DNA from: a virus
Virus record (IMG/VR): IMGVR_UViG_3300044981_000078
Coordinates: 37,669-101,668 of that record
Reading direction: 5' to 3' (one strand)
Length of the DNA: 64,000 nt
Both the position numbers and the translations under genes were made by a program. Shown here one piece after another: positions 3,283-38,506 of the stretch. Position 1 is the first letter of the stretch, and every line of letters begins with the position of its first letter. The notes beneath the pieces were generated by a model, which was given only the letters and a program-made list of their open reading frames with translations, did not search any database and had not been told where the DNA came from.

Positions 3283-5325
3283 GTGGGACTGTTCAAAGAA
3301 ATAGCGGAGCCTCTAGTTACACGCGGTGTGCCTGTAATGCCACTGCGCCCAAAAACTAAGATAGCTTTCTTTAACGATTGGCCTCGTGTAGCGACAACTA
3401 ATTCAGAACAAATTCAAAAGTGGGATGAGGAATTTCCAAACGCAAATGGCGCGTGCGTGGCCCATGCGCATCCTGATGGGGTGTGGTTTTTTGAGATAGA
3501 CAAACCAGGATTCATTGATGAATTACAGGCCGAGACCGGACAAATACTTCCCGAAACTTTTATGGTACGGTCCAGCCCGGGCCGTGGCCATCTATATTTT
3601 CGCCATAACGCGTCTTCTATTTCTCTAGCCGAAAAAAGTAAAGTTATAAAAGCTGTTCAAGATAAGAAAGAGGTTTGGTCTGCTCGCTTAGATAACGCCT
3701 ATGTGGTCGCGCCGGGGAGCTATCATCCTGTATCCGGATTACGTTATGAAACCTTACGTGATGTAGATATAGCCATAGCGCCCGATTGGTTGATCGCGTG
3801 GTGTAAAAACCAGGCGACAGAAGACGAAAAACTGTCTGTATCCTCCATAGATGGTCCAAAGATTCCACGGGGAGCGCACGATACTACTTTAACTCGTATT
3901 GCAGGAAAGCTTCGTCAAGATGGACTAGAAGAAGATTTTATCTACAATGCGATAGTTGAGGTGTGCGAAAAGAGATGTGAGGGCTACGGTTCTGACTATC
4001 GAGATATGTGCAAGAAGATTGCACACTCAATTTGTAAGTACCCAGTCAAGGAAGCCGCGCCAGTCATCATGGGCGGGGTCGTTCTAGGCCAGCCGCAGGT
4101 TCAACCAGTTCCGGAACCGGTAGACATCGCAGCGATCCCATACCCGATATTTCCCCGTTGGTGCATGAAAGGCACATCGGTGTATGATGGACTGATAGAG
4201 CCTATATGCAAGGCTAATAGTCGGTATCCTGAGTTTATGTTCATGCCTGCGGTCGCTCTGATATTGAACTATCTTGCGGGCAAGGTCCGAGTCGAGTATA
4301 AGAATCTCATCCCGAGCTTCTATATGGTGAGCATCGGGCGCAAGGGTCTGGTTATTAAGTCAAGTTCGGTCAAAGATGTGGTAGAATACTTGAACCATGC
4401 TGGAATTGTTAACGACGCCGGTCCGCATACCAGAAATGCCGAGGGCAAGTCACTGATATTTACCCCGGGATCGTCAGAGGGTCTAGGCATGGAAATGTCT
4501 AGGACTAACTGCAAGAATGCGGTATTATTTTACGACGAATTGAGTATCTTGACCAGCAAGGCGGGCATAGACGGAAGCTCACTGATCCCTAACCTACTTT
4601 TGATGTATGAGTCACAGAAGTTTTCGAATTCGGTGAAGTCACGTAAAGAGATTTATAACTTTGAGCCAAACTCATACTGCACGTCATTGATAGCTTGCAC
4701 CACGGACAAGAACTTCCTGCAGAACTGGTCTAAGATGGCGGGCAATAGTTCCGGGCTGGACGAACGGTTCTTCTTTTTGTACCAGCCGGAGGTGTTGAAA
4801 GAGCCGACTCCATACATAGCGGTCGATACTAAAGACGCGGCGGTAGAGACCCGTAAGAGACTAGACAAGGCTATAAAACAGCAGTTGTATCGTATCACTG
4901 ACTCTACTCCTCTAGAGATGAAGATCAGTAAGCTAGGAAACCGTACCGAGATTCGTGCAGAGAAGCTGGCGCTATATTTTGCGATAGACCTGGGACGAGA
5001 CGAGATAGACGAGGAGTGTGTAGATCGAGCTATCGCTATCTGCGAATATGAAATAGCGGTCAAGAAGTACTTGAAAGTGTTCGAGTCCGCGAGTCGGGAG
5101 TCGATGATTCAAAATGAAATGATTCAGGCTCTGCAGCGCAATCAAGGCAGGCTAGAGAAGCGAAAGTTCGAGAAGCTGGTCCACCCACTGCGTCACGGTT
5201 TGAGCGTATTCAACAAGTGCTACATGTCTCTAATCGCGGCAGGATATATCGCAGAATACGGTAGCGGAGTCAAGGGTGATCCGCAGATGGTCATCTTGCT
5301 ACGAAATGTTGAGGAGGATGAATGA
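3283..5325 (+). CDS. bifunctional primase-polymerase (PrimPol) fused to a DUF3987-like helicase domain
   Basis: VMPLRPKTK, FFEID, GRGHLYF, YVVAPGSYHP; PriCT-like GAHDTTLTRIAG; C-terminal KSS and FYDEL P-loop-like motifs. Confidence 0.8.
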   Translation: MGLFKEIAEPLVTRGVPVMPLRPKTKIAFFNDWPRVATTNSEQIQKWDEEFPNANGACVAHAHPDGVWFFEIDKPGFIDELQAETGQILPETFMVRSSPGRGHLYFRHNASSISLAEKSKVIKAVQDKKEVWSARLDNAYVVAPGSYHPVSGLRYETLRDVDIAIAPDWLIAWCKNQATEDEKLSVSSIDGPKIPRGAHDTTLTRIAGKLRQDGLEEDFIYNAIVEVCEKRCEGYGSDYRDMCKKIAHSICKYPVKEAAPVIMGGVVLGQPQVQPVPEPVDIAAIPYPIFPRWCMKGTSVYDGLIEPICKANSRYPEFMFMPAVALILNYLAGKVRVEYKNLIPSFYMVSIGRKGLVIKSSSVKDVVEYLNHAGIVNDAGPHTRNAEGKSLIFTPGSSEGLGMEMSRTNCKNAVLFYDELSILTSKAGIDGSSLIPNLLLMYESQKFSNSVKSRKEIYNFEPNSYCTSLIACTTDKNFLQNWSKMAGNSSGLDERFFFLYQPEVLKEPTPYIAVDTKDAAVETRKRLDKAIKQQLYRITDSTPLEMKISKLGNRTEIRAEKLALYFAIDLGRDEIDEECVDRAIAICEYEIAVKKYLKVFESASRESMIQNEMIQALQRNQGRLEKRKFEKLVHPLRHGLSVFNKCYMSLIAAGYIAEYGSGVKGDPQMVILLRNVEEDE

Positions 5326-24272: not shown

Positions 24273-24748
24273 AAATTTCGTGGAGCGAACAAGAGAATTG
24301 GTTTCAGGTCGAACTAGGAGAGCCCTGGCGCGATAACATGGAACTAGTTCGTTTGGTCGGCTTCAAGACCACTGGCCCGCCTGATTGGATTTGGCACACC
24401 TCTAAAGCAGCAATCCTGAACAAACTTCGCAGTAAATCGCAGTCACTGGTTATCACAGAACTCGCCTTCGAAAAGTATAAACTACTCAACGAACAAGAAC
24501 AATCTAAAATTGAGCTTAAGAAGAGATTCTTAAAAGCCAAAACATTGGCTGCGCGAGAAATAAACTCTAACAATTGGAAAGAGTATTTTGATGAACAAAC
24601 TGGGGTCATGTGTAAGATAGTCGAGCCGGTCACAGATAAATTTGTATGGAAATATGAGCCGCCACCCCCGCCGGGGTTGCGTTGCTTTATGTGCGGGCAG
24701 CCGTTATATTGTTTCGATCTGTCGGATATTTGTACATGGTGCGGTTAA
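24269..24748 (+). CDS. hypothetical protein with C-terminal Zn ribbon
   Basis: CFMCG...CTWCG. Confidence 0.55.
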   Translation: MKISWSEQENWFQVELGEPWRDNMELVRLVGFKTTGPPDWIWHTSKAAILNKLRSKSQSLVITELAFEKYKLLNEQEQSKIELKKRFLKAKTLAAREINSNNWKEYFDEQTGVMCKIVEPVTDKFVWKYEPPPPPGLRCFMCGQPLYCFDLSDICTWCG

Positions 24749-24758
24749 GGGAGATAAA

Positions 24759-24926
24759 ATGAAACGTTTGTGTGTATTTTATGATTCACCTAGTGGAAAA
24801 ACAGCGCGGAATTGGCTGGACAAGCCCATTCAATGGATCGTCTGTAAGAAGTGTCAAAAACTGTTGGCAAGGGGTGAGACTATCTATTCTTCGCTCTCCA
24901 AAGTATTTTCTAACTACGCAGATTAA
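24759..24926 (+). CDS. small hypothetical protein
   Basis: ATG after GGGAG; its stop lies within the IS target duplication. Confidence 0.45.
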   Translation: MKRLCVFYDSPSGKTARNWLDKPIQWIVCKKCQKLLARGETIYSSLSKVFSNYAD

Positions 24927-24979
24927 AATAGGGGAATTATCCACTTGACTCCCTAACCCAAATTTGGTAGTATTTGGGT

Positions 24980-25906
24980 ATGAGCAAAAGCACAGTGAGC
25001 ACCTTCCAACTGTTCGAGAAGTGGCCGACTGAAGAGTCCGCAAGACTCTACATTGAGAAGCGACTATGGTCGAACGGCCCTGTATGCCCACGCTGTAAGG
25101 CTACAGAGCGCATTACGGCCCGCAAAGGCGGCTTCTACCGTTGTAACCCATGTAAATGGGACTTCACGGTTAGAACAGGCACTATCTTCGGTCGTTCGCA
25201 CGTCCCGCTGCATAAGTGGTTGTACGCAATGTACTTGCTTGTGACTTCGCGGAAGGGAATTTCATCTCTGCAAATGTCTAAAGAAATTGGAGTTAAGCAG
25301 CATACCGCGTGGTTCATATTACAGCGGTTGCGAGAAGCCTGCGGCGCGGAAGTCAAGATGCTTCAAGGGATTGTCGAAGTGGACGAAACCTTTATTACAG
25401 GCAAAGAACAGAATCGCCATATGTATGACCGTATCCATGACCCCCGAGAGCGATCAGAGAAGGCAATCGTAGTCGGGATGCGAGAACGTGGCGGGAATAC
25501 CGTTGCGACGGTAGTTCAGAGCACGGGCGGTTTGGCTCTCCGCGCCGAAATACACAAGCATGTGGTATCAGGCACTAGAGTTATGACCGACGATTACGGC
25601 AGTTACACGGCGCTCCCGAGAGAAGGGTTCAAGCACGAGAGCGTAAAGCATGTCACAGGAGAATATGTCCGTGGCGACGTTCACACTAATTCAATTGAAT
25701 CAGTATGGGCTGTTCTAAAGCGCGGGGTACACGGGACGTTTCACCATGTCAGCAAGAAACACCTGAATCGATATGTTTCCGAGTTTACTTTTCGTCTAAA
25801 TGACGGTAAGGTTCAGCGCCACACTCTTGATAGACTCGACAGTCTGATATCCAATGTGGTAGGGAAACGAGTTACATACGAAGAAATAATCTCAGAAAAG
25901 TCTTGA
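24980..25906 (+). CDS. IS1595-family (ISXO2-like) DDE transposase
   Basis: CPRC..CNPC Zn ribbon, GTIF, KGISS, VEVDETF, MTDD, HTNSIESVW, YVSEFTFR. Confidence 0.95.
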   Translation: MSKSTVSTFQLFEKWPTEESARLYIEKRLWSNGPVCPRCKATERITARKGGFYRCNPCKWDFTVRTGTIFGRSHVPLHKWLYAMYLLVTSRKGISSLQMSKEIGVKQHTAWFILQRLREACGAEVKMLQGIVEVDETFITGKEQNRHMYDRIHDPRERSEKAIVVGMRERGGNTVATVVQSTGGLALRAEIHKHVVSGTRVMTDDYGSYTALPREGFKHESVKHVTGEYVRGDVHTNSIESVWAVLKRGVHGTFHHVSKKHLNRYVSEFTFRLNDGKVQRHTLDRLDSLISNVVGKRVTYEEIISEKS

Positions 25907-25932
25907 CAAACTCTTCTGTTTTTTGTTAGACT
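25903..25932 (+). promoter_or_regulatory. internal sigma70 promoter driving the IS cargo
   Basis: TTGACA-18 nt-(TGT)TAGACT overlapping the transposase stop. Confidence 0.65.
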
Positions 25933-26024
25933 GTTCTGGTAGCAAGTTGAATGGTGGATTCGTCGCCCACTGCAAATCGACGATAAGGCAGACGTAAAAG
26001 AAAGCAAACCCGTCGGCTACATAT

Positions 26025-26100
26025 GCGGAGGTAGTTTAATGGTAGAACGATCTGTTAACCAACAGGTAGGTGGCGGTTCAAATCCGACCTCTCCGCTCCA
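26025..26100 (+). tRNA. atypical tRNA-Gly-like RNA (8-nt anticodon loop, bulged T stem)
   Basis: Acceptor GCGGAGG/TCTCCGC, U73, encoded CCA; D arm GTTT-AATGGTA-GAAC; anticodon stem ATCTG/CAGGT with loop TTAACCAA; T loop TTCAAAT. Confidence 0.85.
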
Positions 26101-26210
26101 AGAATCTCACGACGAGTGCAAATATCTCGGAAACGATTTATGGGATTGCGGCCACATTGACAATTCTATTGATGGCTGTGACTGTCATGTTTGCGCGGCG
26201 GAGTTGATAA

Positions 26211-26753
26211 ATGCCCGACCAATCGCTTAGTAAAACTCCCTTCTGCCGTCTCCTGTCCGCCGAAGAATCAAACAAAATGCTTAATGCGTGGCACTATCTA
26301 GGCGAAGTCAGGGGAATATTGTTTTCTGTCGGCCACGAAGAAGGTTGCTGTGTTTTCACCAACTGTCGCTCTCGGGTGTATGAAAAGAAGCATCCGGGAG
26401 TTGTTGAGTTGTCCAGAATGGTAGGAATGCCGGGTCATAAATGGGCGATGTCTTCTTTGATGGCTCAAGCCACTCGGGAATGCAAAAAGCGCGGCTACAC
26501 GGAAATAATCACCTACGCAGACCCGTGGAATAATAACACAGGTAAAGTCTATCTTGCGGCGGGCTGGAAAGCGGCGGGCAGCACCGGGCAGGATATGGTC
26601 TACCTTCTCGATGGTGAGCGCATCGCTCGTAGAACGCTTTATGACCGTCATGGAACGCAGTCCAGAAAGAAAATGAAAGAAATCTACGGTGACCGCCTAC
26701 AATTTGAAATTGCACCCCCTAAACCAATTTTCATAAAAGCATTGGTTTCTTAG
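26211..26753 (+). CDS. Mom-family (GNAT-fold) adenine-modifying enzyme
   Basis: WHYLG, ELSRM, ITYADP, GKVYLAAGW and C-terminal KPIF motifs typical of Mom-like proteins. Confidence 0.8.
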   Translation: MPDQSLSKTPFCRLLSAEESNKMLNAWHYLGEVRGILFSVGHEEGCCVFTNCRSRVYEKKHPGVVELSRMVGMPGHKWAMSSLMAQATRECKKRGYTEIITYADPWNNNTGKVYLAAGWKAAGSTGQDMVYLLDGERIARRTLYDRHGTQSRKKMKEIYGDRLQFEIAPPKPIFIKALVS

Positions 26754-26825
26754 TTTTATGGATACTTATAAAGATTTTATGTGGGATTTACGGGGAGTCA
26801 AGTGGATAATTCCCTAAAATAGTCC

Positions 26826-26855
26826 TTGACAAACCTAGATGTCATTTGATAGCTT
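26826..26855 (+). promoter_or_regulatory. sigma70 promoter just downstream of the IS
   Basis: TTGACA-18 nt-(TGA)TAGCTT. Confidence 0.6.
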
Positions 26856-26865
26856 TGAGAAGAAA

Positions 26866-27066
26866 ATGTGCATTAAGCTGCCGCATCAATGCAGACAAAC
26901 TAACTATCAAGGCAGCCTTGTCTTTATCTGCAGTCGATGCGGCAAATGCTATGAATGTCGTCACAAAATTGTTTACTTGGAGCAGGAGCATCGATTTGTT
27001 TGGAAGTGCCCGGACGGAAAGTTACGACCGGTAATCAATGACGGAAGACTAAAGGAGACAATATGA
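26866..27066 (+). CDS. small Cys-rich protein
   Basis: CSRCGKCYECRH; likely start at ATG 26866, after the promoter. Confidence 0.5.
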   Translation: MCIKLPHQCRQTNYQGSLVFICSRCGKCYECRHKIVYLEQEHRFVWKCPDGKLRPVINDGRLKETI

Positions 27067-37653: not shown

Positions 37654-38506
37654 CTTCCCCAACGACGATCAGTTTAATATGTTCCGATATCCGGGCGGCG
37701 AAGTTCAAGTCCGTCTTACAGAAGAGACCGTGAATCTGTTAAAGCACCCGAAGGTCGAGAAGGTAGATGTTGTCGCCCGCATCCGCGATGGGGAGATTGT
37801 CGCCTTGGCTCAACTGCTGGATGCCATCAAGGGCGCTACGTCTGCCGATGTCCGATTGATCTTGCCGTATCTTCCATATGCACGGGCCGACCGGCGCTTC
37901 ACACTAGGGGACTCACACGGGCTCGCGGTATTCGGGAGGTTGCTCGGGATATCGAGCTATAACATCGTAACCCTGGACGTTCACTCAGACGAGGCCAAGA
38001 AGTATGTTCGCCATCTGACCAACGTGAGCCCGCTGCCGATCATCGGACAGGTCATCGATCACATAGATGGAACAGAGGCTATCGGAACACCGGTTACCTC
38101 AGTGTGCGTGTTGTTGCCGGACGAGGGCTCCTGTAAACGATACTTCGCAGCCGATAATCCGTATGTCTTACACGCCACTAAGAAACGAGACCCCATAACT
38201 GGAAAGCTATCCGGATTTGAGGTCCCGTCGCCAGATAAGTTCCCGGCAGACGCTATATTGATTGTTGACGATATATGCGACGGCGGAGGGACCTTCATTG
38301 GTATAGCGGACGCGCTAGAGGCTTCGGGTAACACTTTGCCGCTATATCTGTATGTAACTCATGGAATCTTCTCAAAGGGGCTTGAAGAACTGTTAAAGAG
38401 ATTCGATCACATCTATACGACCGATAGTTTTAACGACGTTCCGTGGAACACAGATAAGATCACTAGAATCCCGTGCATGCCGACAATTCTTGAGGCTCTA
38501 AAATGA
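37637..38506 (+). CDS. PRPP-synthetase-like protein (Adps of NARP1)
   Basis: YPGGEVQVR, PYLPYARADR, LDVHS, PDEG, VDDICDGGGTF, THGIFSKG. Confidence 0.9.
   Translation: MILTINFPNDDQFNMFRYPGGEVQVRLTEETVNLLKHPKVEKVDVVARIRDGEIVALAQLLDAIKGATSADVRLILPYLPYARADRRFTLGDSHGLAVFGRLLGISSYNIVTLDVHSDEAKKYVRHLTNVSPLPIIGQVIDHIDGTEAIGTPVTSVCVLLPDEGSCKRYFAADNPYVLHATKKRDPITGKLSGFEVPSPDKFPADAILIVDDICDGGGTFIGIADALEASGNTLPLYLYVTHGIFSKGLEELLKRFDHIYTTDSFNDVPWNTDKITRIPCMPTILEALK

Follow-up and report, generated by a model that had tools for sequence, protein, structure and literature searches.

A phage-borne IS1595-family transposon with a tRNA-Gly-like RNA and a Mom-family enzyme as cargo: a candidate private glycine carrier for DNA modification

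Why would a transposon in a phage genome carry, side by side, an RNA that resembles glycine tRNA and a gene for a Mom-like DNA modification enzyme? The question arises from a 64,000-nucleotide (nt) stretch, hereafter the window, of IMG/VR virus record IMGVR_UViG_3300044981_000078 (positions 37,669 to 101,668), in which both lie within one IS1595-family insertion sequence (IS). The 101,668-bp record, judged 98% complete, represents a soil phage with a virulent-looking genome. In double-stranded DNA, Mom of Mu modifies adenine at N6 with glycine taken from Gly-tRNAGly (Silva et al., Nat Commun 2026, PMC13219725), and this publication bears out a reading of the window made from its letters alone (the sequence-only reading), in which glycyl-tRNA had been put forward as the donor. 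We think it rather probable that the locus is an IS1595 passenger element in which a Mom enzyme captured from phage DNA is served by a look-alike RNA, chargeable by glycyl-tRNA synthetase (GlyRS), as a private glycine donor for DNA modification.

The tRNA-Gly-like RNA and its linkage to Mom-family genes

ARAGORN called a tRNA at 26024-26096 with a 4-base anticodon, 'aacc', in an 8-nt loop, followed directly by TCCA to position 26100, and the Rfam tRNA model gave 30.9 bits against a gathering score of 29. The RNA has the acceptor pairs G1-C72, C2-G71 and G3-C70, U73, CC in the anticodon loop and an encoded CCA; the elbow nucleotides are present (GG in the D loop, TTCAAAT as the T loop), and the T stem contains a bulged A at 26087 that is conserved among relatives. 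The structure was examined in an alignment of 23 relatives, from which the covariance model R1 was built. Acceptor pairs 4-7 showed compensatory changes in 4 to 9 sequences each, and pairs 1-3, U73 and CCA were fixed. The acceptor stem was 97.5% paired, with 5 of the 7 pairs changed on both sides, and the T stem, drawn with the bulged A, was paired in 96.5% of the cells. Over the whole structure 92% of the cells pair, compared with about 50% when the partners were slid, and the covariation score was reached by none of 500 shuffles. The bases of the anticodon arm covary as a hairpin; by folding, its loop comprises 3-6 nt in the relatives, with CC nearly always present.

The GlyRS identity set (U73, G1-C72, C2-G71, G3-C70, C35 and C36) was invariant or nearly so in the 23 sequences; the positions fixed in the RNA are those of the bacterial glycine identity set as listed in PMC9976931. 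A regular T stem and a seven-nucleotide anticodon loop, which decoding and EF-Tu need, are lacking. Judged by its sequence, the RNA resembles a chargeable tRNA and should not be filed as a decoder. When R1 was applied to the canonical tRNAs of the phage, tRNA-Gly(GCC) scored best (41.9 bits), followed by tRNA-Thr (34.3) and tRNA-Gly(UCC) (34.2). These canonical tRNAs form a dense minus-strand array outside the window (G000:C1:18500-24700; L060-L062), and because it includes both tRNA-Gly species, the phage has ordinary glycine decoders besides the IS-borne look-alike. The 276 nt of leader, RNA and spacer folded together were not more stable than shuffles (z +0.91), which gives no ground for proposing a larger structured RNA. 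The leader and spacer around the RNA (25946-26210) differ from those of related locus L020 at about 3-4% of sites, compared with about 21% at mom third positions, and part of the leader recurs in L026 on the opposite side of the RNA.

We searched 241,647 bases of related loci plus the window with R1. The search returned 30 matches in 25 of about 43 distinct Mom loci; all 30 were on the strand of the Mom gene, and 28 directly adjoined a Mom-family gene, the exceptions being L019b and L031. In the clade of the window (support 100/100), the RNA was found in 16 of 16 rows, which represent all 15 distinct loci. Recurrent linkage of RNA and Mom, on which the sequence-only reading had staked its proposal beforehand, is present. 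The arrangement varies: the RNA lies downstream of mom in L018 and L041, an open reading frame (ORF) of unknown family separates the two in L031, and in L015 the RNA stands ahead of another Mom paralogue. A peptide encoded by the T arm and acceptor end of the RNA forms the start of at least five remote Mom representatives. One protein of 577 aa (P0098) joins a Mom-subfamily domain with such a tRNA-derived N-terminal peptide to a C-terminal extension of about 370 aa of unknown family. L013 (2945-4194) contains two tandem Mom genes of different subfamilies, each with its own tRNA-Gly-like 5′ end and with the D-loop ATG as the ORF start. In L019 (948-2628), a promoter-like site, a further tRNA-Gly-like RNA (994-1061, R1 50.9 bits) and a 145-aa ORF lie past the right end, and this RNA precedes a 365-aa DruA/DUF4338-like protein (PF14236, 2.6e-10), a hint that such RNAs may have DruA-type proteins as partners too.

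The RNA and the gene are often one sequence. In 13 of 22 arrangements, conserved K-T-P codons directly follow CCA, the distance from CCA to a W codon is fixed at 58 nt, and the mom frame runs through the RNA with a usable start in the D loop or just before the RNA; L009 and L052 have no start codon after the RNA. This fused layout, in which the tRNA-like sequence is the 5′ coding end of mom, is the commoner one and, as far as the sequences tell, the ancestral one. In the lineage of the window, about 110 nt were inserted and mom has its own GGAG-N7-ATG; in L008, L022, L025 and L027, as in the window, RNA and mom are separate, and mom has a ribosome-binding site and a start of its own. A 63-aa ORF can be read from the D-loop ATG in the window, with GGAGG 7 nt upstream in the acceptor strand and a Cys/His-rich tail. 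It overlaps the mom start by 20 nt, occurs in three close relatives only, and has no family match and a weak coding signal. Its position and size would fit an analogue of Com, the small zinc-finger protein of Mu, but with no homology and the weak coding signal it is a doubtful candidate.

The Mom-family enzyme and the role of the RNA

The product of the Mom-like gene (26211-26753) passed the PF25680 cut-off of 27.1 with 43 bits (5.4e-11) and matched phrog_1384, 'Mom-like DNA modification protein', at 7e-17. In metagenomes, 97 relatives share 41-100% identity with it; 185,579 prokaryote genomes yielded no relative of this Mom subfamily. Mom was not retrieved when the PDB was searched by sequence, whereas a fold search with the AlphaFold model of the enzyme (pLDDT 92) placed Mu Mom (8bv8) at the top, before generic GNATs (E 1.4e-7, TM 0.64). 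Helices 140-147 and 152-162 of the model lie between strands, form an insertion before the last strands of like length to that of Mu Mom, and are among the best-conserved stretches of the protein. Residues H28/Y29, R69, S81/S82, D104 and Y114 align with Mu H58/Y59, R111, S124, D149 and Y159 and are invariant or nearly so (the numbering of the Mu Mom record is that of the paper minus 10); R111, S124, D149 and R151 have been shown to be essential in Mu Mom (PMC13219725). Between the window and L020, mom differs at 42 sites, 39 of them at third codon positions, indicating purifying selection.

Mu Mom accepts all isoacceptors of tRNAGly and refuses Gly-tRNAAla (PMC13219725), suggesting that it probably reads the acceptor end. 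By analogy, the most economical reading of the locus is probably that the look-alike is charged by GlyRS, kept from translation and used to feed the enzyme. The IS1595 element would have transposed into TAAAATAG between two phage genes, bringing a passenger unit, captured from phage DNA, that would be transcribed from its own promoter to give the look-alike RNA and the Mom-family acyltransferase. Once released from the transcript, the look-alike would probably still be charged by host GlyRS and be unfit for EF-Tu and the ribosome. As in Mu Mom, the enzyme would then move glycine from the charged look-alike onto adenine N6 of double-stranded phage DNA. DNA modified in this way would blunt restriction, to the benefit of the phage, and the carrier would avoid competing with translation. 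A precedent exists in the non-proteogenic tRNAGly of staphylococci, which evade EF-Tu and supply glycine to Fem transferases (Rietmeyer et al. 2021, PMC7826273).

Several points weigh against this reading. A sister clade is without such an RNA in 17 of 20 rows, within the DNA fetched, indicating that the enzyme does not need the RNA in principle. All host tRNAGly isoacceptors serve Mu Mom (PMC13219725), and the phage itself encodes canonical tRNA-Gly(GCC) and tRNA-Gly(UCC). The essential R151 of Mu aligns with W106, which is variable across the subfamily, so the chemistry or the target may differ. A glycyl-RNA without the shield of EF-Tu could face deacylases (PMC4880308). Moreover, the fused layouts offer usable start codons only in or before the RNA, so that its release would behead the messenger, a situation that fits a role in cis at least as well.

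Such a role would make the tRNA-like fold a regulator of the mom messenger and never a free charged RNA. The acceptor strand would give the Shine-Dalgarno sequence GGAGG and the D loop the AUG, and folding would hide the start and delay a potentially harmful enzyme until late; the fold would be a structural analogue of the Com-controlled hairpin of Mu, or a handle for binding of RNase P or GlyRS. The immediate passage from CCA into K-T-P codons in 13 of 22 arrangements, with its fixed 58-nt spacing, and the frame that stays open through the RNA, with no later start codon in L009 and L052, agree with it. So do the GGAGG-N7-ATG that is read directly in the window, the same fusion in the second, distant Mom paralogue of L013, the tRNA-derived peptide at the head of at least five remote Mom representatives, and the same embedding described by McMurdie et al. 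2011 (PMC3146451). However, mom stands apart from the RNA and has an independent ribosome-binding site and start in the window, L008, L022, L025 and L027; L018 and L041 have the RNA downstream of the gene, and an unrelated ORF intervenes in L031. The invariant U73, CCA, pairs 1-3 and loop CC suit a synthetase, not a start-hiding hairpin, and the 5′ strand of the acceptor, which can read GCGACCG or GCGGTTG, often does not resemble a Shine-Dalgarno sequence. We judge regulation in cis an unlikely explanation overall and a serious one for the fused forms, where it may coexist with a carrier role, one transcript yielding either product.

It is hardly credible that the RNA is a working decoder, either a tRNA-Gly for GGU or a four-base frameshift suppressor, that stands beside Mom by chance or as cargo. 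Although ARAGORN and Rfam call a tRNA and the window copy keeps the elbow nucleotides GG and TTCAAAT, the Rfam score of 30.9 is barely above the threshold of 29, relatives combine covarying stems with loops that vary between 3 and 8 nt, and the bulged A of the T stem is conserved. The phage also already has a large canonical tRNA array with two tRNA-Gly, and the 30 matches on the strand of the Mom gene, 28 directly adjoining a Mom-family gene, are against chance company. A different target for the enzyme was considered as well: it could acylate glycyl-tRNA in the manner of the TacT-like GNATs, the look-alike then being a decoy or antidote, or the RNA could decoy host tRNA-cutting defences, DNA not being the target. 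TacT and similar GNAT toxins read U73 and G71 of tRNAGly (PMC9976931), Mu R151 is not kept, and a similar RNA precedes the DruA/DUF4338-like gene in L019. We nevertheless regard this as very improbable, since the best fold and profile matches are to Mom and not to toxin GNATs, the enzyme has, among its best-conserved parts, the helical insertion that is specific to Mom and has been proposed as a grip on DNA, and the cargo partner in L053 is a DNA methylase, which points to DNA protection.

If the RNA does donate glycine to the enzyme, a broader proposal can be made, which we offer tentatively and regard as possible, with doubt prevailing: phages, and a transposon moving between them, would carry a self-sufficient DNA-hypermodification kit in which a Mom-type enzyme comes with an aminoacyl carrier RNA that is its own and takes no part in translation. 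A single RNA segment would, in the ancestral layout, be carrier as well as ribosome-binding site, start codon and first mom codons, so that the carrier doubles as the mom 5′ end and a transcript becomes either cofactor or messenger.

The transposon, its mobility and the origin of its cargo

The IS1595-family element is intact at window positions 24932-26814 and is 1,883 bp long. Its inverted ends (24932-24953 and 26793-26814) are complementary at 22 of 22 positions, and it is flanked by TAAAATAG, an 8-bp target duplication with copies at 24924-24931 and 26815-26822. The 308-aa transposase matched the full length of the PF12762 profile (DDE_Tnp_IS1595) at 6.4e-42, and its zinc ribbon matched PF12760 at 9.5e-9. 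The catalytic DDE domain, N-terminal zinc ribbon, inverted ends and 8-bp duplication that mark the IS1595 family are all found. The intact IS described in the sequence-only reading, with perfect 22-bp ends, 8-bp duplication and full transposase, thus stands, as does its cargo of a promoter, a CCA-ending tRNA-Gly-like RNA and a Mom-like gene (Table 1). The ends, beginning GGGAATTAT, would fit the ISNwi1-group consensus ggnnatTAT of the ISfinder tables, and the length would fit the size range of passenger-carrying elements. In GC content the element is not distinguishable from its flanks.

An empty site was found in a 5,233-nt contig from an independent soil metagenome, as the sequence-only reading had suggested looking for in relatives. 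The contig runs through 24500-24923 and resumes at 26815-27055; exactly 1,891 nt are missing between the two, 8 nt fit both sides, and this near-identical phage differs at 4 of 665 flank positions. The empty site in so close a relative proves a discrete insertion, beyond chance. The element is recently mobile. At the insertion point it breaks nothing, because the left TAAAATAG copy supplies the TAA stop codon of the phage ORF upstream and the right copy is followed by the promoter-like TTGACA of the next gene, which is the phage's own.

The TGA stop of the transposase sits within the -35 hexamer of the cargo promoter. The promoter scan gave 4 promoter-like sites, compared with 2.8 expected from shuffling, so the cargo promoter is weak evidence taken alone; the site is retained in L019 and L020. 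The internal promoter (25902-25929) resembles the promoter in the flank (26825-26852) at 71%.

Table 1. Features of the IS1595-family element and its borders (window coordinates)
Feature	Position	Strand	Evidence or remark
Target duplication, left TAAAATAG	24924..24931	.	Single copy in empty site
Left terminal inverted repeat, 22 bp, begins GGGAATTAT	24932..24953	+	100% complementary to right end
Transposase promoter-like site TTGACT-17-TAGTAT, partly within left end	24945..24973	+	Consensus match only
IS1595-family DDE transposase, N-terminal zinc ribbon, 308 aa	24980..25906	+	Profile matches
Cargo promoter TTGACA-18-TAGACT, TG upstream	25903..25932	+	Sigma-70-like consensus; conserved in L019/L020
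Conserved leader element	25946..26014	+	About 80% identical to L026 piece downstream of its tRNA-like RNA
tRNA-Gly-like RNA, 76 nt, CCA encoded	26025..26100	+	ARAGORN, Rfam, covariance model
Possible 63-aa ORF, D-loop ATG start	26039..26230	+	Reading frame; without family match
Mom-family GNAT, 180 aa	26211..26753	+	Profiles, fold, alignment
Right terminal inverted repeat, 22 bp	26793..26814	-	Identical 22-mer downstream of Mom in L019/L020
Target duplication, right TAAAATAG	26815..26822	.	Then phage promoter-like TTGACA

Related elements were found at several loci. L019 and L020 carry the same cargo and right end (92% identical) in different flanks, including the identical right-end 22-mer downstream of Mom, and lack the left end and transposase. 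L026 is a complete sister element, with a transposase 63% identical to that of the window, its own 23-bp ends, a TTTTATTA duplication, and RNA and Mom as cargo. L053 is a partial third element, in which the tail of a transposase with 51% identity is followed by an N6/N4 DNA methylase, then by a zinc-ribbon ORF of 63 aa and an RNA fused to Mom. IS1595 elements with Mom cargo, which the sequence-only reading had proposed to seek, therefore recur, complete in L026 and, with a DNA methylase added, partial in L053. The transposase-less cassette of L020 is bracketed by a perfect 20-bp direct repeat (2687-2706 and 3604-3623) containing the -35 hexamer TTGACA. The stretch L053:3-1845 looks like transposon cargo of two DNA-modifying enzymes, the element borders lying off the contig. 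A blastn search of the element against 50,697 phage records gave no match, and no relatives of the flank proteins and transposase were found in viral contigs.

Did the IS make the pair or acquire it? Most RNA-Mom loci are without a transposase, and IS-type ends follow Mom in only four loci, namely the window, L019, L020 and L026. In the tree, the IS-linked rows are nested among IS-free rows, and at least three changes are needed. This distribution indicates that IS1595 elements picked up a phage module, and as read from the sequences the RNA-Mom pair is such a module, captured by IS1595 elements at least twice. The IS as inventor of the pair was rejected on the same grounds, the rarity of IS-type ends and the nesting of IS-linked rows. 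The idea that the IS packages the enzyme with its RNA thus holds in that both are aboard; as the IS's own make the pair does not stand, being mainly a captured phage module.

A second IS1595-family element occurs in the same phage 32 kb upstream, outside the window (G000:C1:29628-31166; L003:1059-2597). It is 71% identical in the transposase region and has imperfect 21-22-bp ends, an A-rich target and small Cys-rich ORFs on either side of the transposase; it is without a tRNA-like RNA and without a Mom gene.

Relation to known systems

The enzyme is closest to Mu Mom (PMC13219725; PDB 8bv8; PF25680), with which it shares family and fold, most catalytic residues and the helical insertion, implying the same kind of co-substrate. 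Mu, however, encodes no tRNA and scavenges host tRNAGly, whereas here a dedicated look-alike is co-encoded; in addition, R151 is not conserved, the protein has 180 instead of 231 aa, and the gene rides on a transposon. Co-encoded tRNAs and transposons are not mentioned by Silva et al. (PMC13219725). The com-mom arrangement of Mu also differs, since no Com homologue was found here; com of Mu overlaps the mom start, and it is the 63-aa ORF that does so in the window. If the RNA is a private donor, DNA hypermodification that depends on tRNA would be more than simple scavenging from the host: enzyme and dedicated RNA cofactor would make up a two-part system.

In concept, the look-alike is similar to the staphylococcal NP1-NP3 tRNAGly that serve FmhB, FemA and FemB (PMC7826273), which are GlyRS-charged variants with poor EF-Tu and ribosome binding, used by a GNAT-fold transferase outside translation. 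Those tRNAs are confined to staphylococci, have normal loop sizes and act toward peptidoglycan; the RNA described here has a deformed anticodon loop, a bulged A in the T stem and a presumed DNA target, and we do not claim common descent. If the proposal is true, it would be the second independent case, after these cell-wall tRNAs, in which glycyl-tRNA is divided among translation and a further pathway.

The fused layout has a counterpart in the ssrA islands of Dehalococcoides, where a 76-bp tRNA-Gly-like 'pseudo-tRNA' lies within the first 150 bp of a mom homologue (McMurdie et al. 2011, PMC3146451). That description predates the discovery of the Mom donor and proposed no function (PMC3146451). 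The setting there is an integrase-borne bacterial island, in contrast to the separate RNA gene on a phage IS here. If the look-alike is a glycine carrier, the 'pseudo-tRNA' of 2011 would be explained, and the RNA would be a marker for finding active Mom-type systems.

Passenger-carrying members of the IS1595 family, termed 'transporter IS', were reportedly described by Siguier, Gagnevin and Chandler in 2009. We found none in the literature with an RNA gene and a DNA-modification enzyme as cargo. New here are an intact transposon that carries both components, the finding of its empty site, and the evidence that its cargo was captured from phage DNA. If the proposal is true, a complete anti-restriction function can pass between phage genomes on an insertion sequence, and one hop may deliver the whole kit. 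The element shares with the 'transporter IS' the zinc-ribbon DDE transposase, the 8-bp duplication, the short inverted ends and passengers inside, and it differs from them in that its passengers are an RNA gene and a DNA-modification enzyme and its replicon is a virulent-looking phage genome.

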